From IMG/VR virus record IMGVR_UViG_2654587728_000014, positions 1 through 64,000 of that record: a stretch of DNA of 64,000 nucleotides; one strand, given 5' to 3'. Below, one piece after another: positions 4,943-60,943 of this stretch. This stretch comes from a virus. Its lineage: Duplodnaviria > Heunggongvirae > Uroviricota > Caudoviricetes. Positions within the stretch are counted from its first letter, which is position 1. Every line of letters starts with the position of its first letter. A program made the translations under genes and the position numbers. Below the pieces are notes generated by a model. It did not search any database, was not told the origin of the DNA, and saw nothing but the letters and a program-made list of their open reading frames with translations.

Positions 4943-5515
4943 TTACATTTCAGGTTGCGTTATGACAGTCCCAACAGGGTGATAGCGGTAGATCGTTGAC
5001 AGTCCAATATCATAGATAATTGCCAGCCGCTTTCTGTCATACCCTTTCTGGAGCAATCTTGCGATCTGCTCATGCTGCTCCTTCGTCAGTTTCGGGCGAC
5101 GTCCTCCAACTCTTCCTTGTGCTCGCGCAGCAGCCAGTCCAGCCAGCGTGCGCTCAACTATCAGTTCACGCTCCATTTCTGCCAGTGCACCCATCATATG
5201 AAAAAAGAACCTTCCCATCGGAGTGCTGGTATCGATTGAATCCGTCAGACTGCGAAAATTGACACCTTTTGCGCGTAGCTCTTCTGTGAGAGCAATGAGG
5301 TGTTTCATTCTTCTACCCAACCGATCCAGCTTCCAGACCACCAATGTATCCCCTCTTTTAAGGCACTTTAAAGCGCGTTTCAGGCCTGGTCGTTCCGACT
5401 TGGTTCCGCTCATTTTGTCCTCAAAAATCTGTTCACATCCTGCGCACATTAATGCATTGCGTTGCAAATCTGTGTTTTGGTCATTTGTTGACACACGTAT
5501 GTAGCCAATCAGCAT
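4943..5515 (-). CDS. gin: Gin/Hin/Pin-family serine DNA invertase (invertase 1)
   Basis: 190 aa MLIGYIRVSTNDQNTDLQRNAL...; catalytic Ser motif and C-terminal HTH; AAGGGAG RBS; ORF track 4943..5644 has an upstream non-native extension. Confidence 0.93.
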   Translation of the reverse strand: MLIGYIRVSTNDQNTDLQRNALMCAGCEQIFEDKMSGTKSERPGLKRALKCLKRGDTLVVWKLDRLGRRMKHLIALTEELRAKGVNFRSLTDSIDTSTPMGRFFFHMMGALAEMERELIVERTLAGLAAARAQGRVGGRRPKLTKEQHEQIARLLQKGYDRKRLAIIYDIGLSTIYRYHPVGTVITQPEM

Positions 5516-7565: not shown

Positions 7566-8072
7566 CTATGCCGCCCTTACGATGTAATTAAACGCAATGT
7601 TACGGGGACGAATGGTCACATAATTAACCCCATCGCCTCGCGAAGGACCTGCAAATGAAAAACGGGAGAATCCAGGTTGGTTGTCAAGGATTTGGTCATA
7701 GTTATTGATTGAATGACCAGACCCAATGTCAAAATTACCTGCGTAATGAGAAAAACTTGTACCATCCTGCCGTGAAAGCAGATCGCGCCCTGTATCCACT
7801 TTTCGCCCGTCGTCCCATCCACGGATAAACTCACCGCGCAAATCGGGAAGACGGAGGGTCGGGTAGACTCTGGCCAGAACAGGATATTGTTCTTTTGTAA
7901 AGGCGCGCCCGTCGCACTTTAACCAGCCTGCTGGCGGTGTGGCAGTGGGCCACGGAACAGGTACACCAACGGGCAGCGCCGAGCCTTCCCCCAAACCAAC
8001 GTTTTCGTTTTTATCCCTACCTATACCAACTCTGTATTTTTCACGAAACAAAGAGGATGTTTTTTTATGCAA
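7566..8072 (-). CDS. tail-fibre variable C-terminal cassette (Sv' type), promoterless in this isomer
   Basis: LGEGSALPVGVPVPWPTATPPAGWLKCDGRAFTKEQYPVLARVYPTLRLPDLRGEFIRGWDDGRKVDTGR nearly identical to the H segment at 46275-46465. Confidence 0.8.
   Translation of the reverse strand: MHKKTSSLFREKYRVGIGRDKNENVGLGEGSALPVGVPVPWPTATPPAGWLKCDGRAFTKEQYPVLARVYPTLRLPDLRGEFIRGWDDGRKVDTGRDLLSRQDGTSFSHYAGNFDIGSGHSINNYDQILDNQPGFSRFSFAGPSRGDGVNYVTIRPRNIAFNYIVRAA
7984..8011. other. gix-like crossover site B (CCTTCCCCCAAACCAACGTTTTCGTT)
   Basis: about 21/26 identical to reverse complement of site A; lies just upstream of invertase 2. Confidence 0.6.
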
Positions 8073-8666
8073 ATTGGCTATATTCGTGTGTCAACAAATG
8101 ACCAGAACACGGATTTACAACGCAATGCACTGAACTGCGCAGGATGTGAACTGATTTTTGAAGATAAAATCAGCGGAACGAAATCAGCCAGACCGGGATT
8201 GAAAAAACTGCTCAGAACGCTATCAGAAGGAGATACGCTGGTTGTCTGGAAGCTGGACAGACTGGGCAGAAGTATGAAACACCTGATCACGCTTATTGAG
8301 GAATTGCGGGAAAAAGGTGTTAATTTCCGTAGTCTGACGGACAGCATTGACACATCAACACCCATGGGGCGTTTCTTTTTTCACGTCATGGGGGCTTTAG
8401 CCGAAATGGAACGTGAATTAATTGTAGAGCGTACACTGGCCGGGCTGGCAGCAGCACGCGCACAAGGACGCATTGGCGGACGTCGCCCGAAGTTGACAAA
8501 AGAACAACACGAGCAAATAGCGAGGCTGATTAAAAACGGTCATGACAGGAAACAACTGGCGATCATTTACGACATCGGCATATCGACGATTTATCGTTAT
8601 CACCCTGTAGGCGATATACAGGCTGAAGAAACAACCAGGCAGACTCAGGAAAATAAAAACCGCTAA
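8067..8666 (+). CDS. Gin/Hin/Pin-family serine DNA invertase (invertase 2)
   Basis: 199 aa MQIGYIRVSTNDQNTDLQRNAL...; paralog of invertase 1 in inverted orientation. Confidence 0.93.
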   Translation: MQIGYIRVSTNDQNTDLQRNALNCAGCELIFEDKISGTKSARPGLKKLLRTLSEGDTLVVWKLDRLGRSMKHLITLIEELREKGVNFRSLTDSIDTSTPMGRFFFHVMGALAEMERELIVERTLAGLAAARAQGRIGGRRPKLTKEQHEQIARLIKNGHDRKQLAIIYDIGISTIYRYHPVGDIQAEETTRQTQENKNR

Positions 8667-10681: not shown

Positions 10682-10845
<164 letters not shown>

Positions 10846-42225: not shown

Positions 42226-43319
42226 CAGAACCCGATTTTATTGAACGCGATGCCGACAAAATCACGGCAGAAATGATTGCGAAGTATGAAGCGGATACCG
42301 GCAAAACGCTGTACCCGGCACAGGCAGAACGTCTGCTGATTGATCTGTGGGCCTATCGCGAAATGCTGGTCAGGGTTGCGGTACAGGAGGCAGCAAAGCA
42401 GAATCTGGTCGCCTTTGCCCGTGAGCCGATGATTGATTACCTCGGTGAACTGGTCGGTGTATACCGTCTTGCCGCGCAGCCTGCCACTACCACGCTCCAG
42501 TTCTCCGTAGATGAGGCACTGGCCATTGATGTGCTGATCCCGGCAGGCACCCGCGTCAGCGCTTCCGACAGCGTTATTTTTGCCACCGATACAGATGTGG
42601 TACTGAAGGCCGGATTGCTGCTGGTCAATGTCACGTCCACCTGTACCGAACCCGGTACCGCTGGTAACGGCTGGCAACCTGCGCAGGTCAGTCAGTTACT
42701 CGATGAGATTGATAACGTCGACCTGCTGGTGAGCAATCTGACGGCCAGTTCCGGCGGTTCAGAACAGGAAGACGATGACAGGCTCCGGGAGCGTATCAGG
42801 CTGGCCCCGGAGTCATTCACCAATGCCGGAAGCCGTGGCGCATACCGCTTTCATGCCATGCAGGCCCATCCCAACATTGTCGATGTTGCTGTGCTTTCCC
42901 CGGTTCCCGGGACCGTAGATCTGTATCCGCTGCTCAGTACCGGTCTGCCGGACGGCGGTGTTCTCACGCTGGTAGAGAGTTTCTGCTCTGATGAGAAAGT
43001 CAGGCCACTCACTGATACAGTGCGGGCTAAAACACCAGTGAAGGTGGATTACACCATTGAAGCCAAGATTACGATCTATCGTGATCAGGATGCCAGGTCT
43101 GTAAAAGATGCCGCTAACAGCGCCATACAGAACTGGGTGGCATCACGTGCCGCCACGCTGGGGCGCGATATTGTCCCCAGCCAGATTATCAGTGCATTGT
43201 CCGTTTCCGGGGTGTACCAGGTTGAACTGGTGACACCGGCACTGCGGGTGGTGGCAGAAAACGAATGGGCAAACTGTACGGCAATCACTCTTAACATGAC
43301 TGGAGTGTCTGATGACTGA
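42216..43319 (+). CDS. baseplate protein J family
   Basis: 367 aa after W-like gene. Confidence 0.85.
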   Translation: MALTEPDFIERDADKITAEMIAKYEADTGKTLYPAQAERLLIDLWAYREMLVRVAVQEAAKQNLVAFAREPMIDYLGELVGVYRLAAQPATTTLQFSVDEALAIDVLIPAGTRVSASDSVIFATDTDVVLKAGLLLVNVTSTCTEPGTAGNGWQPAQVSQLLDEIDNVDLLVSNLTASSGGSEQEDDDRLRERIRLAPESFTNAGSRGAYRFHAMQAHPNIVDVAVLSPVPGTVDLYPLLSTGLPDGGVLTLVESFCSDEKVRPLTDTVRAKTPVKVDYTIEAKITIYRDQDARSVKDAANSAIQNWVASRAATLGRDIVPSQIISALSVSGVYQVELVTPALRVVAENEWANCTAITLNMTGVSDD

Positions 43320-43890
43320 GCCATTACAACTCCCGCCACCGCTTGAGGGTGATATCAGTCTCAGGACGCTGGGAAGACTGGCAGGACGGCTGGATAACAT
43401 CGACCTGAGCGTACTGATGGTCTTTCTCGTCGATATCGTCGACAGTTCCGCGCTGCCATGGCTGGGCGAGCAGTTCTCACTGTCTGGCGATGGCTGGGAG
43501 CTGGCGGAATCGGACGATGTTCGCCGCATGCTTATAAAAGCAGCCATCGAACTGCACCGGTATAAAGGGACGCCGTGGTCAATCCGGGAAGTTATCCGCC
43601 GTTTTGGCTTTGGTGAAGTGGATCTGATTGAAGGCACAGGTCGTCTCAGTTACGACGGCAATCGCAGCTATAACGGACTGTTTGTTCATGGAGATGCAGC
43701 CGCCTGGGCAGTTTATCGCGTTATTCTGAAACAGCCCATTACTAACGATCAGGCCGCGATGCTGCGTCAGACGCTCGCTGCATTTGCACCGGCCCGCTGC
43801 CATCTGGCCAGCCTGGAGTATCAGTCTGTGGCCATTCGCTATAACAATACCGCCATCCATGATGGCAGTTATAACCACGGGAGCAGTTGA
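43312..43890 (+). CDS. tail protein I family
   Basis: 192 aa before tail-fibre gene. Confidence 0.78.
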   Translation: MTEPLQLPPPLEGDISLRTLGRLAGRLDNIDLSVLMVFLVDIVDSSALPWLGEQFSLSGDGWELAESDDVRRMLIKAAIELHRYKGTPWSIREVIRRFGFGEVDLIEGTGRLSYDGNRSYNGLFVHGDAAAWAVYRVILKQPITNDQAAMLRQTLAAFAPARCHLASLEYQSVAIRYNNTAIHDGSYNHGSS

Positions 43891-45341
43891 TTATGGGAAA
43901 CCTGAATGAAACAGAAAAGTGGGAAGAAAATATCTATCAACTGGAGACATCAGATCCGGTTCTGGGTGGTGCAGACGGGATATCAAATCGAGCCCCCCGG
44001 CAACTGGCAAACAGGACGAAATGGCTGAAGAAAAAAACGGAGGAAGCCGCACAGTCACTGGCTGAACACGTACGTTCCCGTAACCACCCGGACGCGACAC
44101 TGACAGCTAAGGGGTTCACCCAACTGAGCAGTGCCACCAACAGCACCTCTGAAACGCTGGCCGCCACACCAAAGGCCGTCAAGGCTGCATATGACCTGGC
44201 TGCCGGCAAGGCCCCCGTCAGCCATACTCACCCGTGGAGTCAGATAACGGGAGTGCCTGCTGCCTCGCTGACGGCAAAAGGCACCGTACAACTGAGCAGC
44301 GCCACGGACAGTCAATCAGAAACTGAGGCTGCCACGCCGAAGGCGGTCAAGGCTGCATACGACCTTGCAGCCGGCAAGGCGCCCGTCAGCCACACTCACC
44401 CGTGGAGTCAGATAACGGGAGTGCCTGCTGCCTCGCTGACGGCAAAAGGCACCGTACAACTGAGCAGCGCCACGGACAGTCAATCAGAAACTGAGGCTGC
44501 CACGCCGAAGGCGGTCAAGGCTGCATACGACCTTGCAGCCGGCAAGGCGCCCGTCAGCCACACTCACCCGTGGAGTCAGATAACGGGAGTGCCTGCTGCC
44601 TCGCTGACGGCAAAAGGCACCGTACAATTGAGCAGTGCCATCAACAGCACGTCTGAAATACTGGCCGCCACACCGAAAGCGGTCAAGGCTGCATACGATC
44701 TGGCAAACGGAAAACAACCGGCAGATGCCACGCTCACTGCTCTGGCAGGACTTGCCACTGCAGCAGATCGGTTGCCTTATTTTACCGGAGCAGACCGCGC
44801 AGAGCTGGCAACCCTTACAGCTATTGGTCGCGCTATTATCGCTAAGGGCAGTATAAAAGATGTCCTCAATTACCTTGGTTTGGGGGAAGGCTCTGCATTG
44901 CCTGTTGGTGTACCGGTTCCATGGCCCACCGCCACACCGCCAGCAGGCTGGTTACAGTGCAACGGAGCTACGTTCACCAAAGAACAATATCCTGTTCTGG
45001 CCAGAGTCTACCCGACCCTCCGTCTTCCCGATTTGCGCGGTGAGTTTATCCGTGGATGGGACGGTGGTCGCAAGGTTGATACCGGGCGTGCGCTACTTTC
45101 ATTTCAGGAAGGGACTATCGTATCCGGTTTTGATGATAATGATACCGGAGATATCAGTTCGCTCGGCTCTACACAATACGGATTTGGTGACGCTTTAACC
45201 TCTAATCAACTGGGGGTCTTAAATGGCAAAAAGTGGATATTTGATGCATCCTCTAAAGGTGCACAAAGATATGACTGGTGGGCTTATGTATCAGCTCGCC
45301 CCCGCAATATCGCATTTAACTATATCGTGAGGGCGGCGTGA
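43887..45341 (+). CDS. tail fibre protein S of Mu-like element (constant part up to site C, then variable part)
   Basis: 484 aa; tandem shaft repeats; C-terminus LGLGEGSALPVGVPVPWP...NYIVRAA shared with H and the cassette ORFs. Confidence 0.9.
   Translation: MIMGNLNETEKWEENIYQLETSDPVLGGADGISNRAPRQLANRTKWLKKKTEEAAQSLAEHVRSRNHPDATLTAKGFTQLSSATNSTSETLAATPKAVKAAYDLAAGKAPVSHTHPWSQITGVPAASLTAKGTVQLSSATDSQSETEAATPKAVKAAYDLAAGKAPVSHTHPWSQITGVPAASLTAKGTVQLSSATDSQSETEAATPKAVKAAYDLAAGKAPVSHTHPWSQITGVPAASLTAKGTVQLSSAINSTSEILAATPKAVKAAYDLANGKQPADATLTALAGLATAADRLPYFTGADRAELATLTAIGRAIIAKGSIKDVLNYLGLGEGSALPVGVPVPWPTATPPAGWLQCNGATFTKEQYPVLARVYPTLRLPDLRGEFIRGWDGGRKVDTGRALLSFQEGTIVSGFDDNDTGDISSLGSTQYGFGDALTSNQLGVLNGKKWIFDASSKGAQRYDWWAYVSARPRNIAFNYIVRAA
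44099..44700 (+). repeat. tandem 168-bp coding repeats (about 3.5 copies; two perfect copies at 44267-44434 and 44435-44602)
   Basis: exact 168-nt periodicity encoding LTAKGTVQLSSATDSQSETEAATPKAVKAAYDLAAGKAPVSHTHPWSQITGVPAAS. Confidence 0.85.
44865..44891. other. gix-like crossover site C (CTCAATTACCTTGGTTTGGGGGAAGG)
   Basis: consensus core; same orientation as site A; at the constant/variable junction of S. Confidence 0.6.
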
Positions 45342-45347
45342 TACCGT

Positions 45348-45962
45348 TCAGCCGGCAAGCGCCAGTGGCGCTTCCGGCCAGCTGATTTCAGGTGCCTTGC
45401 TGATATCCAGTGCGTTCAGCTCGTCGATATAATCCAGCACGGCGTTCAGTTTTGCCGTTTCTTCTGGTTTCAGACTGCGACCAGCACGCAGTTTGAGGTT
45501 GATAAGATCGACGGACGCCATCGCCTGTTTCACCCGTTGCTGGCGTTGCTGTCTGGCAACCTCCAGTTCTGCGGCTCGCTGCCGTTCAGTATCGGTTACC
45601 CACGCCTCACCGTTCCAGGTATCCCATGGCGTGGCTGGCTGTTTTGTGGTGGTGTCCGCCGGGTAATCACCCGGTTGGGTAATCAGAACGGGGTTACCGT
45701 TCTCCGTGCTGTATACCGTCTCGCCGCGGTGATCAGGCACATGCTCCCACCCGTTCAGCGTGGCAGTCCGGCAAACCACGTAACCCGAAATTGCTTCCGG
45801 CGGTGCATCGGCGCACGAATGTGCCGGAGTACCCACCCCAAGGGCGAGATACTCCACAGAGGATGAGGTGTATTCCCGGGTTTCCTCGTCATAGTGATAT
45901 ACAGTGATATCGCCCGCTACAGTGGCGATACCGTTTTCATCCAGAACTGCAGTGTTACTCAT
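45348..45962 (-). CDS. G: tail fibre assembly protein (P2 G / Mu U family)
   Basis: 204 aa directly downstream of H; stop is 6 bp from the stop of S on the other strand. Confidence 0.85.
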   Translation of the reverse strand: MSNTAVLDENGIATVAGDITVYHYDEETREYTSSSVEYLALGVGTPAHSCADAPPEAISGYVVCRTATLNGWEHVPDHRGETVYSTENGNPVLITQPGDYPADTTTKQPATPWDTWNGEAWVTDTERQRAAELEVARQQRQQRVKQAMASVDLINLKLRAGRSLKPEETAKLNAVLDYIDELNALDISKAPEISWPEAPLALAG

Positions 45963-47611
45963 TAAACTGCCCTCACAATGTAATTAAGTGCAATGCTACG
46001 GGGTCTGACAGTGATACCCTTCGCATACCCGCTTCTGATAGAGGTCAGAATAGTAGCCTGCATACCATTGTCTGACATTGCCACGACAGGATCGCTGAAT
46101 GTTGTCCCGTCCGGCATTTTAAAGCTGCCCTCACGAAGGTCTGTAATGGAATCTTCATTGTTGAATCCCATGCCGACTATCCCCGAGGTTCCCGTAGTGT
46201 CCTGGTTATAATAATCCAGCATTGCTGTTCTTAACAGCGTTGCCCCTTGTGCGGACAGCAACTTACGTCCTGTATCAACTTTGCGCCCGTCGTCCCATCC
46301 ACGGATAAACTCACCGCGTAAATCGGGAAGACGGAGGGTCGGGTAGACTCTGGCCAGAACAGGATATTGTTCTTTTGTAAAGGCGCGCCCGTCGCACTTT
46401 AACCAGCCTGCTGGCGGTGTGGCGGTGGGCCACGGAACAGGCACACCAACGGGTAGCGCCGAGCCTTCTCCTAAACCAAGGTAATCAAGAACTCCCTGAG
46501 TGCTGGTTTTACCAAGAATGGCACGTCCAACACTTGTCAACGCGGTTAACGCGGCACGATCTGCCCCTGTAAAATATGGGAGTTTATCTGCTGATGTAGC
46601 AAGCTCCGCCAGCGCCGTCAGGGTGGCATCCTTCGGTTGCTTACCCGCAAGCGCGTTAGTCATGGTGGTCGCAAAATTCGGGTCATTGCCCAGCGCTGCA
46701 GCCAGTTCGTTCAGCGTGTTCAGTGCATCAGGTGACGAATCTACAAGTGCGGCAATCGCAGCCATAACGAAAGCCGTGCTTGCGATCTGGGCACTATTAG
46801 TCCCCTGTGGCGCTGTTGGTGTTGTTGGCGTTCCGGTCAGTGCCGGGCTGTTTAATGGTGCTTTCTTGTTCGTTTCATCCATTACCGCCTTAACAGCTTT
46901 TGGTGTCGCTGCCAGCGTTTCAGACGTGCTGTTCGTGGCGCTACTGAGCTGAACAATCCCTTTTTGTGTAGTGGTGGCGTTCTGGGCGGTATATTTCCCG
47001 TTAGCCAGGTCATATGCAGCCTTAACCGCTTTCGGTGTTGCGGCCAGTGTTTCTGATTCACTGTTAATTGCACTGCTTAACTGAGTAAAACCTTTTACGG
47101 TCAGCGAGGCGTCCGGGTGACGTCGTGACTGTTCGTGCTCTGATATTTTATCATCCACATATTTGCGGGTTGCCAGAACCACAGACGGGTCGATTTTCAG
47201 CGTGATGGCTTCGGTGTTCGTGACAACCAGAATCATGCGGATAGTCTGGGTGCGTCCACTGCCTTCCTGCAACTGCGGTTTGTACGTTTCCGGGCAGTTT
47301 GCCACCGCAATGAGTGCACCTTCATCATCATAAAGACCAATCTCACGGATCCAGAATCCTCCCTCGTTTTCAGGGATGATTTGCTCCGCAATAATCTGGC
47401 TCTGATTGTTAGGGTCAACACTCAGAAGATTCAGCGGTGCAATGCGTTTCTGGTTAATCAGTTTTGTTTGTGCAGGGTCTGGTGTTGGTAACACACCATT
47501 TGCATCACCAACGGCCATTTGCGTCAGATTCAGCTTACTGCCGAGCATCGTCGCGTTAGCCAGTCGTGCTGCGCCCTGATTAGTCAGAATGGCGTAGTAT
47601 TTCACTGTCAT
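45962..47611 (-). CDS. H: P2-like tail fibre protein
   Basis: 549 aa; N-terminus MTVKYYAILTNQGAARLANA...IAVANCPETYKPQLQEGSGR matches P2 H; C-terminal part after site D matches Mu-type Sv. Confidence 0.9.
   Translation of the reverse strand: MTVKYYAILTNQGAARLANATMLGSKLNLTQMAVGDANGVLPTPDPAQTKLINQKRIAPLNLLSVDPNNQSQIIAEQIIPENEGGFWIREIGLYDDEGALIAVANCPETYKPQLQEGSGRTQTIRMILVVTNTEAITLKIDPSVVLATRKYVDDKISEHEQSRRHPDASLTVKGFTQLSSAINSESETLAATPKAVKAAYDLANGKYTAQNATTTQKGIVQLSSATNSTSETLAATPKAVKAVMDETNKKAPLNSPALTGTPTTPTAPQGTNSAQIASTAFVMAAIAALVDSSPDALNTLNELAAALGNDPNFATTMTNALAGKQPKDATLTALAELATSADKLPYFTGADRAALTALTSVGRAILGKTSTQGVLDYLGLGEGSALPVGVPVPWPTATPPAGWLKCDGRAFTKEQYPVLARVYPTLRLPDLRGEFIRGWDDGRKVDTGRKLLSAQGATLLRTAMLDYYNQDTTGTSGIVGMGFNNEDSITDLREGSFKMPDGTTFSDPVVAMSDNGMQATILTSIRSGYAKGITVRPRSIALNYIVRAV
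46464..46491. other. gix-like crossover site D (CCTTCTCCTAAACCAAGGTAATCAAGAA)
   Basis: very good match to hix/gix consensus; same orientation as site B. Confidence 0.6.
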
Positions 47612-48249
47612 GCGTTTACTCTCAGATTATCAATTAAATGAATGGCCGGGGCAGGGAAATAATCCCCTTCGACAATAATGGACTCCGGGGTGTAGGGATA
47701 AACCGTCAGGGCATCGCCGTGATAGCATCCCGTACCAACGAAAATCTTTCCGTTCACACTCAGGCTGATCGCCAGCCCCGTCAGATGGCGACTTACTGGT
47801 TTTGCATCCGCAATAAGGCGCTCAAGTTCCTGATACATTTCATCGGTGATGCCCTGATCAAGTACTCCGACAACAATGCGAAATGTTCCTGGCTCCTCGT
47901 TGAGTTGCCACCACTCCTTTACTTCAATCAGGTAGCCGAGAGGCTCCACGGCTCTTCGCAGTGCGCTGATGGTCCCTTTGTGTCGGTGTATCAGCCATGC
48001 ATCACGAATTACCTGTCGCTTTGTCTCTTCCGGCCAGTTGCGATCCCAGCGGTCAACGGAAAACGCCCAGGCGAGATAAGGCAGCAGATGCACCGGGCAG
48101 GTGTCCGGCGACCACAGCGTGTTGAGGTCTACCGGAATGTCTGTAATGCGTGTTCCGACGGCTTCGGCACAACGCATGAAATTGCTGGCTGATGGTGGTA
48201 ACAGTGAATTACTCATTGCGTCCACCTTCGCTGATGGTGAATGACTCAC
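47608..48249 (-). CDS. I: P2-like tail protein gpI
   Basis: 213 aa; LLPYLAWAFSVDRWD and ERLIADAKPVSRHL blocks as in P2 I. Confidence 0.88.
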   Translation of the reverse strand: MSHSPSAKVDAMSNSLLPPSASNFMRCAEAVGTRITDIPVDLNTLWSPDTCPVHLLPYLAWAFSVDRWDRNWPEETKRQVIRDAWLIHRHKGTISALRRAVEPLGYLIEVKEWWQLNEEPGTFRIVVGVLDQGITDEMYQELERLIADAKPVSRHLTGLAISLSVNGKIFVGTGCYHGDALTVYPYTPESIIVEGDYFPAPAIHLIDNLRVNA

Positions 48250-49105
48250 AGCGCGCCGCCTGTATGTCGCTGATGGTCATATTCTGTGTGGGTTCGATTA
48301 TCTCCACGCGTTGCACACCGTGCACATGCAGTGCGGCAGCAATGGCGGACAACGCCACGTCCTGACCGATAAGCCCCTGCTCAGCCAGCCACTTCCTGAA
48401 CGACGATTCAGCCGCGGCCAGAATAGGTTCGGATTCCGGGCCGGGGTAAAAGTACAGTTTTGCATTCAGCCGCCATGTCACGATTCTGGCGCTCTGTACG
48501 GTCAGGCGGTCGGCCACCGGGCGGGTATCCTCTGCATTCAGAACGGCGCGAACGGTATTAAGCAACGCCTCCGTTGCTGTGCCGTCGCCTTCAGTGGACA
48601 GGATGGAAACCGTCACATTTGCCGGAGACGGACTGATAGCCCGCGCATCACGCACCAGACCGCTGGCGCTGCGGGCAAAATACTCGTATGCACCTGACGG
48701 GCCAGCAACACTCAGGCCATCGTACGCCCGCTGTGCCCGCAGTCTCAGCGAGGTGTCACTTTCCATCACTGCGTCGGTGGTATCCGTTGCCGGAGTGATG
48801 GTCAGGCGCTTTGTGTTCATATTGCCCGCGAGGTTGTCCAGGTCTGTCCCGGCGCTGTGGCTTAACATGCAGGCGTGTGCCCCCTCATTGACCCGCTGGC
48901 GTAACAGCATTTCACGAAACGCTGTTGTCTGGGCGATAACGTTCAGGGGTTCCGATTCCAGCTCCAGCGCGGCGGAGACGGCTTCACGCTGTTCGGCGGG
49001 ATAAGCCGCAATCATCATGGCCTTTGTGTCAGCCAGAATTGCCTCAAAGTCAGGCTCCGCGATGATGGCGGGTTCCGGTAACTGGGAAAGGTCAACGGCG
49101 GGCAT
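48209..49105 (-). CDS. J: P2-like baseplate assembly protein gpJ
   Basis: 298 aa; synteny. Confidence 0.88.
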   Translation of the reverse strand: MPAVDLSQLPEPAIIAEPDFEAILADTKAMMIAAYPAEQREAVSAALELESEPLNVIAQTTAFREMLLRQRVNEGAHACMLSHSAGTDLDNLAGNMNTKRLTITPATDTTDAVMESDTSLRLRAQRAYDGLSVAGPSGAYEYFARSASGLVRDARAISPSPANVTVSILSTEGDGTATEALLNTVRAVLNAEDTRPVADRLTVQSARIVTWRLNAKLYFYPGPESEPILAAAESSFRKWLAEQGLIGQDVALSAIAAALHVHGVQRVEIIEPTQNMTISDIQAARCESFTISEGGRNE

Positions 49106-49108
49106 GAT

Positions 49109-49459
49109 TTACTCCTTCAGCGTGATGGTTAACTCAACATTCTGCATGGTCTGCATGACAGTGCCCGACAGCGTCACCCCGGCGCGGCCTCCCGCTTTCC
49201 AGACAACGTCGATGGCGTCCAGGGCAATGCGGGGTTCCCATCGTGTCAGCGCAATCACGGCAGCACTCATGCATTGCAGACGAGTTGTGTTATTCATGGG
49301 TTCGTCAATCAAATCAGGCACAAGGCTGCCATATTCCCGTCGCATAACCCGGCTTGCCAGCGGGGTGATCAGGATGTCCCTGACTGACTGTTTCAGGTGC
49401 TCCATATCGTTCAGGTTTCCCGTCCCGTCCGGATTCATTCCTGTGTAGCGGGTTGTCAC
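49109..49459 (-). CDS. W: P2-like baseplate protein gpW
   Basis: 116 aa; synteny. Confidence 0.85.
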   Translation of the reverse strand: MTTRYTGMNPDGTGNLNDMEHLKQSVRDILITPLASRVMRREYGSLVPDLIDEPMNNTTRLQCMSAAVIALTRWEPRIALDAIDVVWKAGGRAGVTLSGTVMQTMQNVELTITLKE

Positions 49460-50037
49460 TGCGGGCCTCCTGTCGAATCGCTGCCACCTTTAACGCCACC
49501 GTGCTTATGCGTATGCACTGTGATGCCGTTTGAGGTGAAATCGCCGCCGCTGTGCGTGATATTGCCGCTCATCTTTCCCCCTTTTGTGACGTCAAGCGTC
49601 GCTGTTCTCAGAAGGTCTGTGCATTCCACGACGGGCGTATCCAGTGTCACGCTGACGGATGCCTGCAGGGTGGCTGTTTTCATGCCGCTGGCGCTCAGTG
49701 CGCCTGCGTCCGTGTCGTAGCGGAACACCGCGCCATCCGGCGCGCTGATCACGATTTCTTTCAGGCTTTTGCCGGGGGCCGGACTGGCATCACTCCACAG
49801 GCTGCCAATTATCATGGCGGTTTCCGGGTTGCCGCCAATGCAGGCAATTACCACCTGTTCGCCTGGTGATGGCGGCAGCCACACATTGAAGGCTCCCGCG
49901 CGCGTGGTGTTCCAGCGCAGCCAGCCTGTTTCCAGTTCGCCGCTGCGAACGCGCACGCACCAGGATTCCTCATCAACTTCAGAGATGATCCCGGTACGGA
50001 TGATGTTGCTCAGCAGTCGCATGAGTTCTGCGCTCAC
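49456..50037 (-). CDS. V: P2-like baseplate spike gpV
   Basis: 193 aa; synteny. Confidence 0.85.
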   Translation of the reverse strand: MSAELMRLLSNIIRTGIISEVDEESWCVRVRSGELETGWLRWNTTRAGAFNVWLPPSPGEQVVIACIGGNPETAMIIGSLWSDASPAPGKSLKEIVISAPDGAVFRYDTDAGALSASGMKTATLQASVSVTLDTPVVECTDLLRTATLDVTKGGKMSGNITHSGGDFTSNGITVHTHKHGGVKGGSDSTGGPQ

Positions 50038-50678
50038 CGTACAGCCTCCGCAATCCGGCCCAGCACCGTGTTATAAATCAGGCGCTCATCTGCCTGGCTG
50101 ATACCCAGCAGCTCACGTACCGGGTAATCGGTGAAAATGCCCGGCGCAACCTGATCGCGCTCACCGAACTGATGAACGCGTGCAATACGTGCGGCCACGC
50201 CGCTGTAACCCACCGTCACACCGGAAGCATCTGCACGGGCTTTCAGGTAGCGGGCGGTGCGCAGTTTTACGAACATGGGGACGCGCTTTGTGCTGTCCTG
50301 GTTGATGCGCCGGGTGCGTATTTCCAGAAAACGGTCGATGTCATCCCGGTAAAACGTGCGGATATTGTTTTTATCCTCATCCCACCCGGTAATGGTTCGC
50401 CCGTATTTCCCCGTGTCGTGATGCCAGTTTTTCAGCGTGCGTGCTTCGTTATTCCAGATAAAGCGAATGCGCTCCTGTATCCGGGTTACGCGGCGTCTGC
50501 GTGGTGTCCATGCGGTCCCGTCCGGCGCTTTCTGTGACCGGATGCGCGCCTGCTGGGCGCGGCGTAAATCCTGTGCCAGCTTTCTGGCGATGTTATTGAT
50601 GGCCTGCTGATTCAGGCTGTCGCGGATGGCCTCAAAGGTTTCATCCACACGGGTGAATGCCTTATCCATCGCTTTCAC
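50034..50678 (-). CDS. S: P2-like tail completion protein gpS
   Basis: 214 aa; synteny. Confidence 0.8.
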   Translation of the reverse strand: MKAMDKAFTRVDETFEAIRDSLNQQAINNIARKLAQDLRRAQQARIRSQKAPDGTAWTPRRRRVTRIQERIRFIWNNEARTLKNWHHDTGKYGRTITGWDEDKNNIRTFYRDDIDRFLEIRTRRINQDSTKRVPMFVKLRTARYLKARADASGVTVGYSGVAARIARVHQFGERDQVAPGIFTDYPVRELLGISQADERLIYNTVLGRIAEAVR

Positions 50679-51129
50679 CCCACGTCACATCCTGGAATAT
50701 ATGCGACCAGTCGCCTTCGGAAGATGGCAGACGGGGTTTTGGCTCCGGCAGGTGCTCTGCCTGCGGTGTCCCCTGACTGCTGCGCGTAATGCGAACGCGT
50801 TCCCGCAGGGGGAGCGTAAACAGGAGATCGGCGCTGTCATCGTCATTGATAACGGCGGAGAATTTGATGTCCTGATTACGCTCCGGATTGAGCAACAACT
50901 GTGGCTGATTTTCGGATAACCACGCCAGTAGCGGCAGCGTGAGGTCGTCCAGCTCCCCGGCGTAATCCATGACAAACATCACCATCTGATAGCGGTAAAC
51001 AAACGAGGGCGTTTCTCCGGTCGTTTCAATGTTGCCGCTCTCCACGAAAATGGTGAATTTTTCCGGGTTGGCCTGACACCATCGGCATGAACGGGTCATG
51101 GCTTCACGCAGGGAATCAGTTTTCAGCAT
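50662..51129 (-). CDS. R: P2-like tail completion protein gpR
   Basis: 155 aa MLKTDSLREAM... resembles P2 R. Confidence 0.82.
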   Translation of the reverse strand: MLKTDSLREAMTRSCRWCQANPEKFTIFVESGNIETTGETPSFVYRYQMVMFVMDYAGELDDLTLPLLAWLSENQPQLLLNPERNQDIKFSAVINDDDSADLLFTLPLRERVRITRSSQGTPQAEHLPEPKPRLPSSEGDWSHIFQDVTWGESDG

Positions 51130-51436
51130 GGTTGTTGTCCTCGTTGTTCAGTCGTTGCAGTCTGCGCTGTTCCAGTAATTCAATGGCCCGTTTATCCGCG
51201 TTACAGGTTTCCAGTGCATCCAGAAGGCGGTCGCCCCATATACCGAGATTTCCCCATGTGGGAGTGTCAGGGAAGGGGGGAGGCGTTACCGGTATGGTCA
51301 GCGTCTGCGGTATAAGCCGGACTGACGGCGCTGGCCGTGGCGCGTTCTGCGTGCCTGCGCAACCTGTCAGTAAAACGAGCATCAGACAAAGCGTGGGCGC
51401 ATTCATCTTTTGCAATATCGTTGCGTAGCTGTTCAC
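51116..51436 (-). CDS. lysC: o-spanin lipoprotein (LysC/Rz1 type), overlapping lysB
   Basis: 106 aa; signal with LLTGC lipobox, proline-rich. Confidence 0.6.
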   Translation of the reverse strand: MNSYATILQKMNAPTLCLMLVLLTGCAGTQNAPRPAPSVRLIPQTLTIPVTPPPFPDTPTWGNLGIWGDRLLDALETCNADKRAIELLEQRRLQRLNNEDNNHAEN

Positions 51437-51674
51437 GTCTGGCTTCTCCGTCCTGATTGCGTTGCTGATTTTCCACGCGGAGTTGCGCCAGCACCTGCTG
51501 CATATCCTGTACCCCGGTGCTGATGATATTCAGGGTGTCGACGGTACTTTTCAGGGTGCTGGCCTGCGCTTCGTTTCTGGCGTTCTCCCGGCCCAGCGAC
51601 CACGACAGACGTATGGATGTTCCCCATGCGGCAATCAGAAGGAAAGCGACACCCAGCGTGGGCCAGAGCTTCAT
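51267..51674 (-). CDS. lysB: i-spanin (LysB/Rz type)
   Basis: about 136 aa from MKLWPTLGVAFLLIAAWG (TM) then coiled coil; ORF track 51267..51818. Confidence 0.65.
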   Translation of the reverse strand: MKLWPTLGVAFLLIAAWGTSIRLSWSLGRENARNEAQASTLKSTVDTLNIISTGVQDMQQVLAQLRVENQQRNQDGEARREQLRNDIAKDECAHALSDARFTDRLRRHAERATASAVSPAYTADADHTGNASPLP

Positions 51675-52063
51675 GCCGGATAGGCTCCGTGTGGTAACTG
51701 AAAATGCGGTCCGTCTTTCAGGGTCTTCCAGTCGCCGCCCCATTCCACCGGAATATTCAGTTCCCGGCTGGCCTGTCTGAATGCTGCTGCGATTTTTTCG
51801 TACAGCGACCATTCCCATGACACCTGGCTGCCGATATAAGCCACAACATCCACGGCATGCCCCGTAAGGTGGCGGCTGTTCATGGTCTGGCTCTTACCCG
51901 TGGCCACCAGTTGCTTCTGGCGGTAACGGCTGCGCAACCCTTCGGTGATACCAAAATCCACTTCCGAGATTTCCAGTGCCCGTCGGGTCACTTTCACCAG
52001 ATCAGGATTTACGCCCTGCAAATTCTTTTCGCTCCGGCTGCTGAATTTAAATGTGTTGCTCAT
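51671..52063 (-). CDS. endolysin, peptidase M15-like (putative L-Ala-D-Glu peptidase)
   Basis: 130 aa with SRHLTGHAVDV metal-binding-like motif; replaces the lysozyme K of P2. Confidence 0.65.
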   Translation of the reverse strand: MSNTFKFSSRSEKNLQGVNPDLVKVTRRALEISEVDFGITEGLRSRYRQKQLVATGKSQTMNSRHLTGHAVDVVAYIGSQVSWEWSLYEKIAAAFRQASRELNIPVEWGGDWKTLKDGPHFQLPHGAYPA

Positions 52064-52383
52064 TCGTCCTTCTCCTTCACCCTGCGATTAAAGGCCGCAA
52101 TAACCTTGTCGCGTGCTTTCTCTGCCCCCATAAAACCGATTGATGCGCCGATAAACGTCACGGCATCTTCAGGAAAACCGAAGAAGCGCAACGACCCGGC
52201 CACGGCCATGGCAAGAACGCCGCACGCCAGCGATCCCGTTACGGTCTGAACCAGTGTTCGTCCGTCATAAAGACTCATCAGCGCGGAAATGCTGACCGCC
52301 GCGCCTACTGCATACACCGTTGGCAGGTGGTCAAAGAGCCATGCAATAACCTGCTCTGTGATCCCTGTTTGAATGGTGCTCAC
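52060..52383 (-). CDS. holin (putative)
   Basis: about 107 aa from GTG after GGGGGGAG RBS; hydrophobic helices; ORF track 52060..52602 over-extended. Confidence 0.55.
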   Translation of the reverse strand: MSTIQTGITEQVIAWLFDHLPTVYAVGAAVSISALMSLYDGRTLVQTVTGSLACGVLAMAVAGSLRFFGFPEDAVTFIGASIGFMGAEKARDKVIAAFNRRVKEKDE

Positions 52384-52385
52384 TG

Positions 52386-52586
52386 CTACTCCCCCCACAA
52401 CGGAATCATTTCTCGTTTCTTCTTCTCCGGCTCCGGCATCTCCACTTCCTGCCCGGCGTCCAGAAATACCTGCTGACAGAGTCCGGGGTTGGCATCCAGC
52501 ACCTTTTCGGTGACGCCCTGCGTCGTGCCGTAGTACCGGAAACAGAGCGAATCCACGGTGTCGCCTTCCAGTGCCTTTACTTTCAT
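52386..52586 (-). CDS. X: P2-like tail protein gpX
   Basis: MKVKALEGDTVDSLCFRYYG... LysM-like, as P2 X. Confidence 0.8.
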   Translation of the reverse strand: MKVKALEGDTVDSLCFRYYGTTQGVTEKVLDANPGLCQQVFLDAGQEVEMPEPEKKKREMIPLWGE

Positions 52587-53089
52587 CAGCACAACTCCGC
52601 AAAGATTCGCGGACGGCACAGAATGTCAGAGATGGCCCAGCTCACATCACGCCACAAATCCGATGTCTGTATATCCAGTGCGTCCGCCCGGCGGTCGCCC
52701 TTGTCCGTTGTGTCCGCATCGCGGTAACGCTCCAGAATCAGGGCGCGTGTGGCGGTGTAAACCGCATTGCGCCAGTGCCAGAGATTGACACTTTCTCCGT
52801 TAATTACGGGTGCCGGAACATCGGCCAGCGTCTGATGGCCAGCCGCCTGCTGTTCCTGCTGCCATGCTTCCAGCTCGCGGGTAACATGTGCCACAGCCCC
52901 GGTGGCGGTATGCAGCAGACGGGAGGTGGTCACACGGCCCGGCAGTCGTACCGCCAGACGCAGCTCACGCAGCACAATATCCGGCCAGAATGCACCCGCT
53001 GAAATACGGGTATCACCATCATCGGTATCGGTGATGTCGTCCTCTGCGGGGCCGGGGTTGGTTCTGGCAACCATACTCATGGGGTTCAC
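52586..53089 (-). CDS. L: P2-like head completion protein gpL
   Basis: 167 aa; synteny. Confidence 0.78.
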   Translation of the reverse strand: MNPMSMVARTNPGPAEDDITDTDDGDTRISAGAFWPDIVLRELRLAVRLPGRVTTSRLLHTATGAVAHVTRELEAWQQEQQAAGHQTLADVPAPVINGESVNLWHWRNAVYTATRALILERYRDADTTDKGDRRADALDIQTSDLWRDVSWAISDILCRPRIFAELC

Positions 53090-53182
53090 TCCTGAAAAAA
53101 ATCGGGCGGTGGGTGCGCGGTGTAAACGGTCACGGAGTCAAACCGGAACACCGCGCACGCCGCCCGCTGACGGGGTCAGTCG

Positions 53183-53983
53183 TTAACCGCGCTTCGCCTT
53201 CTGCGTCGCGGTGGTTTTTCGTGTTGCAGGCTTCCGCGTTGTCTTTTTACTTTTGCTGCTTTCGTCCTGCGCCTGCTGTGCGCTGGCGTCTTCTGGTTCG
53301 GCTGCGGAATCGGCTTTTTTCAGGGCGCGGGAAAGGGTTGCAATCTCGCGTTTCACACCTGCATTCGGGTTCAGGTGCATTGCTTCGCGCAGCAGCTTCA
53401 GTGACAGGGCCATGCTGTCCGCATCACTCAGGCCACGACGGGCAAAGGCGCACGCCTTGCATAATTTGGCGCGCACTTCGTCCGGCATGTCCTGGTCGGT
53501 GACAATCTCCCGGAGGGTATCCAGTGGTTCGATAAAGGCGGACAAATCCGCGTCGGCATCCGTCCCGGCCTGCGTCAGTACCGGGTTGCAGATTTCTTCG
53601 GTCAGCACTGTGGCAGCAGTACGGCCAAAGTTATCCGGCATAATGAGGTTATGACGGACCACATACGCACCAATACGCAACGCCAGCGGAAGATCGCCGC
53701 AGTCAATCGCCCACACCATCAGCGTGGCAATCACTTCATCCTGCTGCCCGCCGTCAGCCTCCAGCGTTCCCTCAATCCAGCCGGAAAAGTCCGGCAACAA
53801 CTCTTTTTTGATGGCGGCTTTCGCGCTTCTGGCCTGTACGCCCTTAAGCCGGGCCTGTGCCAGACGCAGACGATACAGCACCTCTTCATGCGCGGTACGC
53901 GCGGCGTGGTCCACGCCTTCGTTCGCCCGGCCTGCGCGCTGTGCCATCACGTTCTGCCAGTGTTGCTGTGCAGGAGTAATCAT
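53183..53983 (-). CDS. M: P2-like terminase small (endonuclease) subunit gpM
   Basis: 266 aa; synteny between N and L. Confidence 0.78.
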   Translation of the reverse strand: MITPAQQHWQNVMAQRAGRANEGVDHAARTAHEEVLYRLRLAQARLKGVQARSAKAAIKKELLPDFSGWIEGTLEADGGQQDEVIATLMVWAIDCGDLPLALRIGAYVVRHNLIMPDNFGRTAATVLTEEICNPVLTQAGTDADADLSAFIEPLDTLREIVTDQDMPDEVRAKLCKACAFARRGLSDADSMALSLKLLREAMHLNPNAGVKREIATLSRALKKADSAAEPEDASAQQAQDESSKSKKTTRKPATRKTTATQKAKRG

Positions 53984-54028
53984 TTTTTCTCTCCGTTACA
54001 GGCGGGCATGATGCCCGCTGTGAGTTGA

Positions 54029-55081
54029 TTAGCTGTCGGCGAACTTCAGGCCAGTGACCATCGCGCACTTGCCATAGTCTTCAACGACATAAGCGTCATT
54101 GATGGACTGGTAGGTGGCGATGCGGTTGTATTCCGGTTCGTCTTTCATCAGACGACGCATTGAACCTTTCTGCCAGTAAATCGACAGGTTGTTGAACGAG
54201 GTGATCAGCATCGTTGCATCCGGGAAGAACGGCGCAAGGAACACACCCAGCCCGCCAATGGTGCGCGATGACAGGATGAGCTGTCCGGCGAGTAATTCCG
54301 CATTGGGATTCTGGCCGCTGATGCTGTTCAGCACGGGCAGACGCAGCGAGTTAAACAGGTTGCGCCCCATAATCACCACGAGGTCGTCAGCTTCCTTGTG
54401 CCATTCATCCAGCAGGGATGAGCGTGCGTCCTGAACCAGTGCATCAGCGTTCGCATACTCACCCGCGTGCGCCACGGTGTTGTCCATGTTGCGGGAGGTC
54501 AGCGTCACGTCATTCATTACGCGCGCGCTGGCATTGGTTCTGATGTGCTCCAGCCACCCCACGTTAACGTCCTGAAGCAGCTTGTTGGTGCTGAAGTTGG
54601 ATTTTTCCGCGTGTGACGTGCCGTTAAAGCCGATCATGATGCGGTCAAGCGCCACCTGTCGGGCAATCTGTGCGCTGATGCGGGTCTGGAAGTCATTGTG
54701 CGCCGCCCAGGCATCAAGCTGCGGATACGAAATAAACGTGTCGTAGTTCACCTGCTCACACTGGTACTGACGGGACTTCAGGTCGACAGCGTTAATCGGG
54801 TTGCGGCGATCTGTGCCGTCATAACTGGTATTTGTGCGCGCAATCGGCCCGGTGGTGTCCATGAGGACTTTTTCGCCTTTCTGGTCGGTCACACCGATCA
54901 CGTTAATTTTTTTTGTAAGTTCGGTGCTATCCTTTGAGGCGTTTTCAAAACGCTGCTGCACCGAGGGTTCCACGGTAAATCGCGATACCAGCCCAGAAAC
55001 CGGGATATTGTTAATCGACGCCTGTCGCGTCATGTAGCAGCCCAGCTTGTTACGGGCATTATCTGACATCACCAGATTCAT
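54029..55081 (-). CDS. N: P2-like major capsid protein gpN
   Basis: 350 aa; FTVEPSV and VVEDY blocks as in P2 N. Confidence 0.9.
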   Translation of the reverse strand: MNLVMSDNARNKLGCYMTRQASINNIPVSGLVSRFTVEPSVQQRFENASKDSTELTKKINVIGVTDQKGEKVLMDTTGPIARTNTSYDGTDRRNPINAVDLKSRQYQCEQVNYDTFISYPQLDAWAAHNDFQTRISAQIARQVALDRIMIGFNGTSHAEKSNFSTNKLLQDVNVGWLEHIRTNASARVMNDVTLTSRNMDNTVAHAGEYANADALVQDARSSLLDEWHKEADDLVVIMGRNLFNSLRLPVLNSISGQNPNAELLAGQLILSSRTIGGLGVFLAPFFPDATMLITSFNNLSIYWQKGSMRRLMKDEPEYNRIATYQSINDAYVVEDYGKCAMVTGLKFADS

Positions 55082-55104
55082 AAAAAATTTGCTCCTTTGT
55101 CTTA

Positions 55105-55974
55105 TCAGAAGTCAGCCAGCTGGTCGGAGGCTGCGCCCGTTGCGGTGAACCGGTTCTGCGGATCGCCGTCCTGCGTGCGCAGCTTTTCCTTCAGTGCTGT
55201 CAGCTCTGTGGTCAGCGAAGTGATTTTCTGGCTGTCCTGCTGATGGCGGGTTTCCAGTGCATTAAAGCGGTCGATAATATCGGCCTGTGACGTTGCGACA
55301 CCTTCCACCGCTTCCTGAATACGGGAGAAACTGGCGTCATCCGCTTTGCGGCCACGGCCAATAATCCCCATAACGCGGTTAAACCACTGGGTGCCTTCTT
55401 CCTGACGTTGTTCGGTGAGTTCGATAAGTTCTGACTCCATAGCGGCGGTGAACATCGCCACGTCTCCCTGCTGACAGTTGAATGTCATCAGTTGCATACG
55501 TTGTTGTGCCGCAAAGGCCAGACGTTCCGTGCCCAGGCTGGCGGGGGTGTCGGTCATTGCCAGCCCGCGCAGGTAAGGGCCTCCCGTGATGGTTGACTGT
55601 GGTTCCAGCTCAATACTGGAGTAAATTTTTTTACCATCGTTAAGCAGGGACATCATGCGAGCGGTCGGCTCAATTTCGGCATACAGTGCCGTGCGGCCTG
55701 CCAGCGGGCCATCGGTTATGTCTTCGGTGCTCAACCCCACAACATCGCCCATAGCGGAAAACTCGCTACCGGGGAGTGGTGACAGGATGTGCTCAATATT
55801 CACACGTGCACCATAAACGGACGGGTTATAACTGGTGGCGGCAGCTTTCAGCATGTCGCCGTTGATTTCGCGCCCGTCTGCCGTCACACCGGAGACAGCC
55901 ACGCGAAACTTTTTGCGGGATGTCTTTTTTTCATTAGTCATAGTTTTTGCCCCTCTGACTGGTTCTTCAGTCAT
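55105..55974 (-). CDS. O: P2-like capsid scaffold protein gpO
   Basis: 289 aa; divergent from P-Q. Confidence 0.85.
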   Translation of the reverse strand: MTEEPVRGAKTMTNEKKTSRKKFRVAVSGVTADGREINGDMLKAAATSYNPSVYGARVNIEHILSPLPGSEFSAMGDVVGLSTEDITDGPLAGRTALYAEIEPTARMMSLLNDGKKIYSSIELEPQSTITGGPYLRGLAMTDTPASLGTERLAFAAQQRMQLMTFNCQQGDVAMFTAAMESELIELTEQRQEEGTQWFNRVMGIIGRGRKADDASFSRIQEAVEGVATSQADIIDRFNALETRHQQDSQKITSLTTELTALKEKLRTQDGDPQNRFTATGAASDQLADF

Positions 55975-56095
55975 GATGGCAAAGCGTAACAGGCTGATAC
56001 AAAGGGCTTTTGTTGTAAGAAAACAGTCAGAACAGGGGGTTAAGGAGAACGGTTTCGCGCGCGGGTAATCTTCCTGTAATTACTCAGGGGGAGCA

Positions 56096-57847: not shown

Positions 57848-58893
57848 TGAGCAGAAAAAATAAAAAAGTGCGCATGAGTTCACGCATTGATCTCGCTGAT
57901 GCGCTCAGGAAAGAATCATCGCTCAGTGCATTCACATTTGATGGTCCTTATCGCCTGACCGGGCATGACCTGCTGGACAATATGTACTGTGCTGATAACG
58001 GGCGGTGGTATGAAACCCCGGTGGACTGGTACGGTCTGGCAAGAGCAGCCCGGCAAACGTCCTGGCATCAGTCTGCGCTTTACTTTAAGCGCAATGTATT
58101 ACTCGGTTGCTACATCCCGCACCCGCTGCTTTCCCGGCAGGATTTCTCGGCGCTGGCGCTGGACTGGTTTGTGTTCGGTAACGCATTCCTTGAGCTTCGA
58201 AGCAATATGCTCGGCGAACCGCTTAAATTACGGCACGCCCTGGCGAAATACATGCGACGCGGAAGCGATCTTGAATCATGGTGGTATGTGCAGGATGGCA
58301 AGGACGCGTTTCAGTTTCGTCCTGGCAAAGTGTGCCACCTGATGAATCCGGATATTAACCAGGAAATCTACGGCATGCCGGAATATCTTGGCGCATTACT
58401 CTCGGCCAGCCTTTCTCATTCGGCGGACATGTTCAGAAAACTGTACTACGACAACGGATCCCACGCCGGGTGCATCATCTACATCGGTGCAGCGCAGGTA
58501 AACCGCGAAAGCATGGACTCCCTGAAAGAAACGCTACAGGGGGCACGTGGTGGTGGTGCGTTTAAAAACGTGCTCATTCATGCGCCCAACGGGGGCAAAG
58601 AGGGGGTGCAAATTTTGCCGTTCCAGCAGATCACCGCAAAAGATGAATTCATGAATGTTAAGGCGGCATCCCGTGATGATGTGCTGGCTGCGCACCGCGT
58701 TCCGCCGCAACTGATGGGGGCGATGCCGGGCGAAAAAAGTGCGTTTGGCGATGTGGAGAAGGCAGCGCGGGTTTACGCAATTAACGAGCTGATGCCCGTC
58801 ATGGAGGCTATGAAGCACATCAATGACTGGCTTGGCGAAGAGGTGATCCGTTTTAACTCTTATGCTCTTCTTGATGAAAAAACAGCCCCGTGA
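57847..58893 (+). CDS. Q: P2-like portal protein gpQ
   Basis: 348 aa; ATGA-coupled to P. Confidence 0.9.
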   Translation: MSRKNKKVRMSSRIDLADALRKESSLSAFTFDGPYRLTGHDLLDNMYCADNGRWYETPVDWYGLARAARQTSWHQSALYFKRNVLLGCYIPHPLLSRQDFSALALDWFVFGNAFLELRSNMLGEPLKLRHALAKYMRRGSDLESWWYVQDGKDAFQFRPGKVCHLMNPDINQEIYGMPEYLGALLSASLSHSADMFRKLYYDNGSHAGCIIYIGAAQVNRESMDSLKETLQGARGGGAFKNVLIHAPNGGKEGVQILPFQQITAKDEFMNVKAASRDDVLAAHRVPPQLMGAMPGEKSAFGDVEKAARVYAINELMPVMEAMKHINDWLGEEVIRFNSYALLDEKTAP

Positions 58894-59986: not shown

Positions 59987-59993
59987 AAAAGTA

Positions 59994-60939: not shown

Positions 60940-60943
60940 TGGT

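Follow-up and report, generated by a model that had tools for sequence, protein, structure and literature searches.

A probable very recent duplication of a shaft module in the tail-fibre gene of a BcepMu-like prophage

In the tail-fibre gene S of a BcepMu-like transposable prophage, two adjacent 168-bp units are identical base for base, and it is very likely that they arose through a very recent in-frame tandem duplication of a single unit within the constant shaft of the fibre. The DNA analysed here (the window) is a stretch of 64,000 nucleotides that corresponds to positions 432-64431 of the draft contig JHRJ01000008.1. The repeat in S belongs to a curated Pfam repeat family and represents a familiar, unexceptional type of polymorphism in fibre length; what is new is the specific allele, the clean comparison that isolates a single event, and the documented range of 3 to 11 modules in this prophage family.

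Results

The repeat array of gene S

Gene S (43893..45341, plus strand) encodes a protein of 482 aa, as judged from the open reading frame, its translation and the matches to the Pfam families PF03406 (four) and PF07484; the likely start is the ATG at 43893, which overlaps the stop codon of the upstream gene. At 168 bp, the unit spans 56 codons, and the array lies in frame inside the open reading frame (43887/43893-45341). Direct base comparison of the two central units, A1 (44267-44434) and A2 (44435-44602), both on the plus strand, shows that 0 of the 168 positions differ, precisely as the earlier, sequence-only reading of this DNA had claimed. That reading had also described diverged copies on either side, which we find as well: upstream, the older unit C1 (44099-44266, plus strand), with the SHTHPW motif, shares 82% identity with the central unit, from which it differs at 29 nucleotides, and downstream, the stretch 44603-44770 is 62% identical overall and is repeat-like only in its first 111 nucleotides. 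The latter comprise the partial last unit C4 (44603-44713, plus strand), which consists of the Pf2 motif without the HxH half and differs from the A units at 23 of the 111 positions.

The perfect period-168 block extends beyond the two units to 44226-44627 on the plus strand (402 bp or 2.4 copies, with the identity unbroken for start positions 44226 to 44459), and it contains three copies of a perfect 66-bp junction repeat, at 44226-44291, 44394-44459 and 44562-44627. Tandem Repeats Finder reports a somewhat broader array at 44121-44705, with a period of 168, 3.5 copies, 91% matches and a score of 907; the period-168 repeat is far beyond chance. As in a variable-number tandem repeat (VNTR), the copies are arranged head to tail, the unit length is a multiple of three and the reading frame of 482 aa is intact. 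A slipped-strand contingency locus that would switch expression on and off was rejected as a description of the array, given that the unit is 168 bp rather than 1-9 bp and is always in frame; all S alleles that we inspected remain open reading frames.

The module and the layout of the fibre

Each repeat unit of S is one PF03406 module. Comparison with Pfam detects PF03406 (Phage_fiber_2) in four stretches with a score of 243 bits (E=1.1e-73; the gathering score is 22 bits), along with the tail-collar domain PF07484. The full unit of 56 aa, LTAKGxxQLSSAxxSxSExxAATPKAVKAAYDLAAGKAPVSHTHPWSQITGVPAAS, consists of the Pf2 motif followed by a half with the HxH motif, and there are three SHTHPW (HxH) motifs in the protein. 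The codon differences between C1 and the central unit are mostly synonymous (18 synonymous versus 5 non-synonymous), indicating that the modules are kept by purifying selection.

From the N-terminus onward, the protein comprises a part of ~68 aa, the four modules (aa 69-275), a linker described as helical, the sequence NYLGLGEGS, the collar and a tip of ~90 aa. The array of modules thus forms the connection between the baseplate-binding N-terminus and the collar with its tip. At the end of the constant part lies a 26-bp Gin-type crossover site, TCCTCAATTACCTTGGTTTGGGGGAA (44863..44888, plus strand), found by pattern search, and relatives switch tips exactly at this site. Since the site is downstream of the array, the whole array belongs to the constant shaft, and variation of the tip has a mechanism of its own. 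The assignment of the repeats to the shaft of the S fibre in the sequence-only reading was therefore right in substance, the array lying between the baseplate-attachment N-terminus on one side and the crossover site and the collar on the other, and the phage being BcepMu-like.

Directly upstream of S is a baseplate wedge gene of the Tail_P2_I family (43312..43890, plus strand), and Pfam also identifies a Baseplate_J gene upstream. In phage Mu, the N-terminus of the fibre docks on the wedge protein gp48 (the gp48-gp49 contact; PMC11915804), although the cryo-EM paper models just 'the N-terminus' of gp49, the limits of which are not given there. By analogy, the product of 43312-43890 is presumed to be the docking partner of the N-terminus of S.

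In the fibres of R-type pyocins and in the needle of T4 gp37, a buried iron ion is coordinated by the HxH motifs of three chains, which contribute six histidines (PMC6116203). The R1/R2 pyocin shaft, the gp37 needle and S are alike in carrying HxH in the shaft of a trimeric fibre, and by the same analogy each SHTHPW site of S would bind a metal ion in the trimer; a search for sequence similarity between S and the pyocin fibre found no match. A search of the sequences in the PDB yielded no structure that covers the module beyond a sequence match to the single motif of Mu S. The AlphaFold2 model of the S monomer, built from an alignment of 27 sequences (mean pLDDT 31.7, pTM 0.17), is of no use, which is unsurprising for a single chain of a fibre that is trimeric.

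The phage that encodes S

The genes around S are a Mu-type set that, according to Pfam, includes an rve transposase, an AAA+ protein (AAA_22), Phage_Mu_Gam, Portal_Mu and Phage_Mu_F, with the early genes on the strand opposite to the late genes. As is the case for a Mu-like fibre gene S, the gene occupies the last region of the late operon. Moreover, the recovered phage PhiKM, which is classified as a Bcepmuvirus, carries an orthologous fibre gene with 3 modules. Given the Mu-type phage and this relative, the gene name S used in the sequence-only reading is apt.

Copy number in related prophages

Orthologues of S in complete E. coli genomes have the N-terminus MGNLNETEKW in common. The upstream I protein is identical in these orthologues except in IPCEC31 and EC5654 (the flanking DNA of IPCEC31 is 98.8-99.9% identical), and the downstream recombinase WP_000904922.1 is common to all of them wherever the fetched stretch reaches it. 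The number of modules differs among these genomes: 3 in IPCEC31, WGS1363 and S5, 5 in FCI23 and E-1246, 6 in EC5654, 7 in GN03204, and 8 in IAI39. The array of EC5654 has a perfect neighbour pair of its own, which represents an independent recent duplication. In the best 120 protein clusters, S-type proteins contain 3 to 11 motifs spaced by 56 or 44 aa: seven modules are found in 38 clusters, six in 27, five in 18, eight and nine in 6 each, and three, four, ten and eleven in a single cluster each. The lengths of the best clusters form ladders, for example 426/482/538/594 and 555/611/667/723/779 aa. The claim of the sequence-only reading that the copy number can change is borne out by these counts, and the invariance across related genomes that would have contradicted it is not seen.

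The array is present in 623 of the 5,426 complete genomes of E. coli. The perfect A-A pair, by contrast, occurs in none of the 5,426, the best match being 99.2% identical (three genomes), and the exact 482-aa S protein was found on one contig only, JHRJ01000008.1 of the draft assembly GCA_001267345.1. A search for S in the phage collection returned just four records, none of which reached 80% coverage.

Several observations on these homologues concern their annotation and distribution. RefSeq splits intact S genes of relatives (L001, 6205-7287; L004 and L006) into 'incomplete' pseudogene pieces even though the reading frame is open, and the name 'short-chain fatty acid transporter' has been given to many S homologues; 'Fe2+ ABC transporter permease' is the name in PhiKM of an opposite-strand open reading frame that overlaps the 3' end of the fibre gene. 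The split pseudogenes and the transporter names given to the relatives of S look like propagated misannotations. In addition, P1-type fibre proteins (P0020, P0025, P0084, P0091 and others), which share the N-terminus MGADKTNNIMTL, contain 9 motifs with alternating 44/56-aa spacing and are encoded on contigs of 82-183 kb (mostly 91-97 kb), two of which are annotated as plasmid-borne. This alternation implies that both unit types are common to Mu-like, P2-like and P1-like fibres.

Origin of the extra module

The allele of E. coli IPCEC31, which has three modules, encodes the 426-aa protein of cluster P0086, with 266 member sequences. When one unit, which can be either A1 or A2, is removed from the S gene of the window, direct comparison with this allele gives 0 mismatches over 1287 bp. 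(A BLAST value of 97.8% identity to IPCEC31 is misleading, being an artefact of averaging over overlapping pieces.) The perfect agreement means that the duplication is the sole difference between the two alleles and that it is very recent, and together with the 0/168 differences between the units it upholds the proposal of a recent amplification made in the sequence-only reading. The rarer four-module state is most simply regarded as the derived one.

The 66-bp perfect repeats at the unit borders are the likely substrate for misaligned pairing. They occur twice, 168 bp apart, in the three-module allele (L001), three times in the window and four times in a five-module allele. Misalignment of these repeats, through unequal sister-strand exchange or through replication slippage, would add or remove whole modules with the frame kept, and S would accordingly behave as a minisatellite-like locus the product of which shifts in length by 56 aa (or by 44 aa in relatives with the short unit type). 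In E. coli, unequal sister-strand exchange and replication slippage are both known to act on tandem repeats of this size. We infer this mechanism of module gain and loss, exchange and slippage alike, from the arrangement of the repeats.

Discussion

Alternative explanations

Because the window derives from a draft whole-genome shotgun contig of 159 kb, one has to ask whether the strain actually has the common three-module allele and a short-read assembler went around the repeat loop once too often. The difference from the widespread 426-aa allele is, after all, exactly one perfect unit and nothing more, the four-module allele was found on no second contig or complete genome among those searched, and the Logan contigs of a second sample with matching prophage junctions stop at the crossover sites, and the 36-kb one among them would, by an estimate of its length, end inside the array. 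Nevertheless, the usual error of assemblers at tandem repeats is collapse, not expansion, and the 66-bp repeat is spanned by ordinary reads of 100-250 nt. Moreover, finished genomes genuinely vary between 3 and 8 modules, down to the independent perfect pair in EC5654, and it is this variation of a like kind that leads us to consider an assembly artefact improbable. Even less credible is a history in which four modules are the older state, the central units were homogenised by gene conversion and the three-module allele of the relatives is a later deletion. The arrays of relatives do show patterns of concerted evolution, with alternating A and B units that are 87-90% identical and near-identical units that are not adjacent, and a deletion between 66-bp repeats is as easy as a duplication. 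However, the remaining 1287 bp carry no substitution compared with the three-module allele, which is widespread (266 members) where the four-module allele is confined to a single contig, and conversion followed by an exact deletion amounts to two events where one suffices. We regard this scenario as highly improbable and retain the recent duplication of one unit.

What the duplication means for the phage is a separate matter, on which two readings deserve to be weighed. The variation in length might simply be neutral, with the sequence being recombinogenic and the function of the fibre independent of the number of modules: the same tip is found on alleles that have anywhere from 3 to 11 modules, and PhiKM, a phage that has been recovered, manages with 3. 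Set against neutrality are the purifying selection on the old modules (18 synonymous versus 5 non-synonymous codons), the observation that none of the S-type proteins listed has fewer than 3 motifs, and the precedent of the T4 fibre, where the duplication of a domain changes the host range, according to Tetart 1996 as cited in PMC3157838. Neutrality thus appears to be a serious contender, albeit one that falls somewhat short of probable. The other reading, to which we give less credence and which we consider rather unlikely, is that the Pf2/HxH array is a fast-changing 'rheostat' of fibre length, heterogeneous within a lysogen culture or a burst, that tunes the reach or stiffness of the fibre to the thickness of the O-antigen or the capsule. 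If so, host range would vary along two independent axes, the rheostat being one and the switching of tips by the invertase the other. Presumably, the physical length or stiffness of the fibre changes with the number of modules, and this number may affect adsorption or host range.

Relation to known systems

The motif of S is the same as in the Pf2 repeats of lambda Stf/StfR, P2 H, P1 S and Mu S (G.xQLSSAxxSxSExxAATPKAVKxxxD), and in the fibres of the Pf2 family it occurs, in one to many copies, between an attachment domain and a receptor-binding tip. Unlike in Pf2 fibres in general, the motif of S is embedded in a unit of 56 aa, which is longer and includes an HxH half, and two neighbouring units are identical in DNA sequence. 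By comparison, Mu S has a single Pf2 copy, H has two copies of the short type, and the P1-type proteins have 9 (11 in one fragment) alternating 44/56 units.

Growth of fibres by module duplication is an accepted theme (PMC6116203), which appears also in Sandmeier 1994, as cited in PMC4134206, and in Tetart 1996, as cited in PMC3157838, and fibre length can be adjusted by means of repeating elements (PMC6116203). One parallel is T4 gp37 (Tetart et al. 1996, J Mol Biol 258:726), in which a small domain was likewise duplicated in frame via short His-containing motifs; as PMC3157838 cites that work, this duplication expands the host range. The gp37 duplication, however, lies in the receptor-binding tip and its effect on host range was demonstrated, whereas that of S lies in the constant shaft, and no sequence relation was detected between the duplicated parts of gp37 and S, with only the collar matching 2xgf. 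The start of the 66-bp border repeat of S coincides with the second His codon of SHTHPW (THPWSQITGVPAASLTAKGTVQ), which recalls the T4 gp37 duplications bounded by His boxes. S also resembles the VNTRs of bacterial surface proteins, which have units of a multiple of three, high DNA identity, strain-polymorphic copy number and a preserved frame, except that S is a gene for a phage virion protein and not for a cell-surface adhesin.

The S allele is a clean example, with one event and no other substitution, of shaft growth by whole modules. The strong polymorphism in module number within the BcepMu-like prophage family should be useful for strain typing and for the engineering of fibre length. 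The case also cautions that such fibre genes are poorly served by short-read assembly and automatic annotation.

An invertible segment common to S and H

Downstream of the array, the tip of S is part of an invertible segment that it has in common with a second fibre gene, H (45962..47611, minus strand), a P2-type gene of 549 aa with a PF12571 N-terminus, two PF03406 stretches and a collar. The sequence-only reading had noted that H carries a related motif twice, and so it does: PF03406 matches two stretches with 141 bits, and the motifs, at aa 190 and 234 (about 46808-47107 in the DNA), are 44 aa apart and have no HxH. A pattern search places a second 26-bp crossover site, TTCTTGATTACCTTGGTTTAGGAGAA, inside H (46466..46491, minus strand). 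Detection of the S and H sites required the degenerate Gin-type core WWACSWWSGTWW, which has 6 matches in the window versus 0.4 expected; the strict gix core AAACCNNGGTTT, with 1 mismatch allowed, retrieved only three sites near the recombinases, which is not above chance.

The segment (1.6 kb, 44889..46465, no strand assigned), recognised by the inverted sites and an inverted repeat, contains the collar and tip of S (plus strand), an assembly gene (45348-45962, minus strand; Pfam Caudo_TAP) and the collar and tip of H (minus strand), and is flanked by a 392-nt imperfect inverted repeat (44709-45100 / 46254-46645). As in Gin-type segments, the two 26-bp sites are in inverted orientation and one of them lies inside the fibre gene. 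The segment shares 99% identity with the G segment of IPCEC31. That it occurs in both orientations is seen only from relatives: L001, L004 and L005 have it one way round, and L006 and L007 the other. In the isomer represented by the window, no serine recombinase gene adjoins the S/H segment, both such genes being ~37-40 kb away.

Five crossover sites in the window form one family: 5570-5595 (plus), 7547-7570 (minus), 7986-8009 (minus), 44863-44888 (plus) and 46466-46491 (minus). All of them have a central TT, and each site is followed by GG(G/A)GAAG, encoding LGLGE; they closely match the sites of the E. coli EC958 prophage Phi2 (PMC4134206), where the 5' site has 2 of its 26 positions different from the S site. 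The five sites allow several inversions, both short and long. In EC958, inversion of a 2-kb segment of Phi2 was seen in PacBio reads (PMC4134206). The Gin, Cin, Pin and Min systems and Phi2 resemble the present one in the 26-bp site family, the inverted repeats that encode the collar, the alternative tips, the assembly protein and the serine recombinase, but the fibre genes on either side of the segment in the window belong to two different prophages. Inversion of the Gin type is a system of variation that neighbours the repeat and is distinct from it.

Nested prophages and a probable long-range inversion

The surroundings of S are more unusual than the repeat, in that a transposable prophage lies inside the tape-measure gene of another prophage. 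The window consists of prophage DNA throughout, with the P2-like prophage at 1-4864, in part of 5596-10683 and at 46492-64000. The tape-measure gene T of the P2-like prophage is split into an N-terminal half (3535-4864, plus strand) and a C-terminal half (9194-10683, minus strand), and the Mu-type ends at 4865 and 10684 adjoin these halves, each reading TGAT, 9 nt and GATAAATG; the junction stretches are 4859-4870 and 10678-10689. The ends have the TG...CA form, repeated transposase-binding motifs and a short target duplication, as in Mu. Excision of the element together with one 6-bp GTGACG restores an intact open reading frame of 937 aa for T, which excision of 5 bp fails to do, and the intact T genes of other strains match up to exactly 4864, from which we conclude that the Mu-like phage transposed into T. 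No Mu-in-T junction matching that of the window was detected in complete E. coli genomes; both T/Mu junction proteins are also encoded in contigs of the independent run SRR21136863, which stop at crossover sites.

Both Mu ends read inward on the plus strand, which calls for a subsequent inversion that had one of its breaks within the element. In addition, T-C, U and the P2-type recombinase lie in the opposite orientation to that in intact relatives. These features of the sequence are best explained by an inversion of 37-41 kb between Gin-type sites of the Mu-like G region and the P2-like H region, and the pair involved is most likely that of the sites at 5570 and 46466. Recombination of site a with the H site and of the S site with site b would both yield the observed gene order; the similarities of the cassettes favour the former. 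With such an inversion, S of the Mu-like prophage and H of the P2-like prophage point towards each other across a single invertible segment of 1.6 kb, the Mu-like prophage falls into two parts of 0.7 kb and 35.8 kb, and the two recombinase genes flank the other cassette cluster. The inversion systems of the two prophages would thus have recombined over ~40 kb, with one invertible segment now serving two fibre genes, and the orientation of the 37-41 kb stretch would decide whether the Mu-like prophage is contiguous. As the Mu-like prophage is split in the isomer represented by the window, S may not currently enter any virion.

The Gin-like serine recombinase of the Mu-like prophage (4943..5515, minus strand; Pfam Resolvase and HTH_7), parted from S by the proposed inversion, is 94% identical to the recombinase region of the IPCEC31 prophage. 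The serine recombinase at 8067..8666 (plus strand; Pfam Resolvase/HTH_7) is assigned to the P2-like prophage by synteny with L003, and the two genes flank the other segment, 5596-7985. The cassette cluster at 5587-8072 holds a pair of collar-type tips and a C-terminal tip that is gp53-like, along with two tail-fibre assembly genes facing in opposite directions; in the isomer represented by the window, none of these is joined to the N-terminus of a fibre. Finally, between its early and late regions, the Mu-like prophage carries a gene for a D12-class N6-adenine DNA methyltransferase (20014-20868, minus strand).
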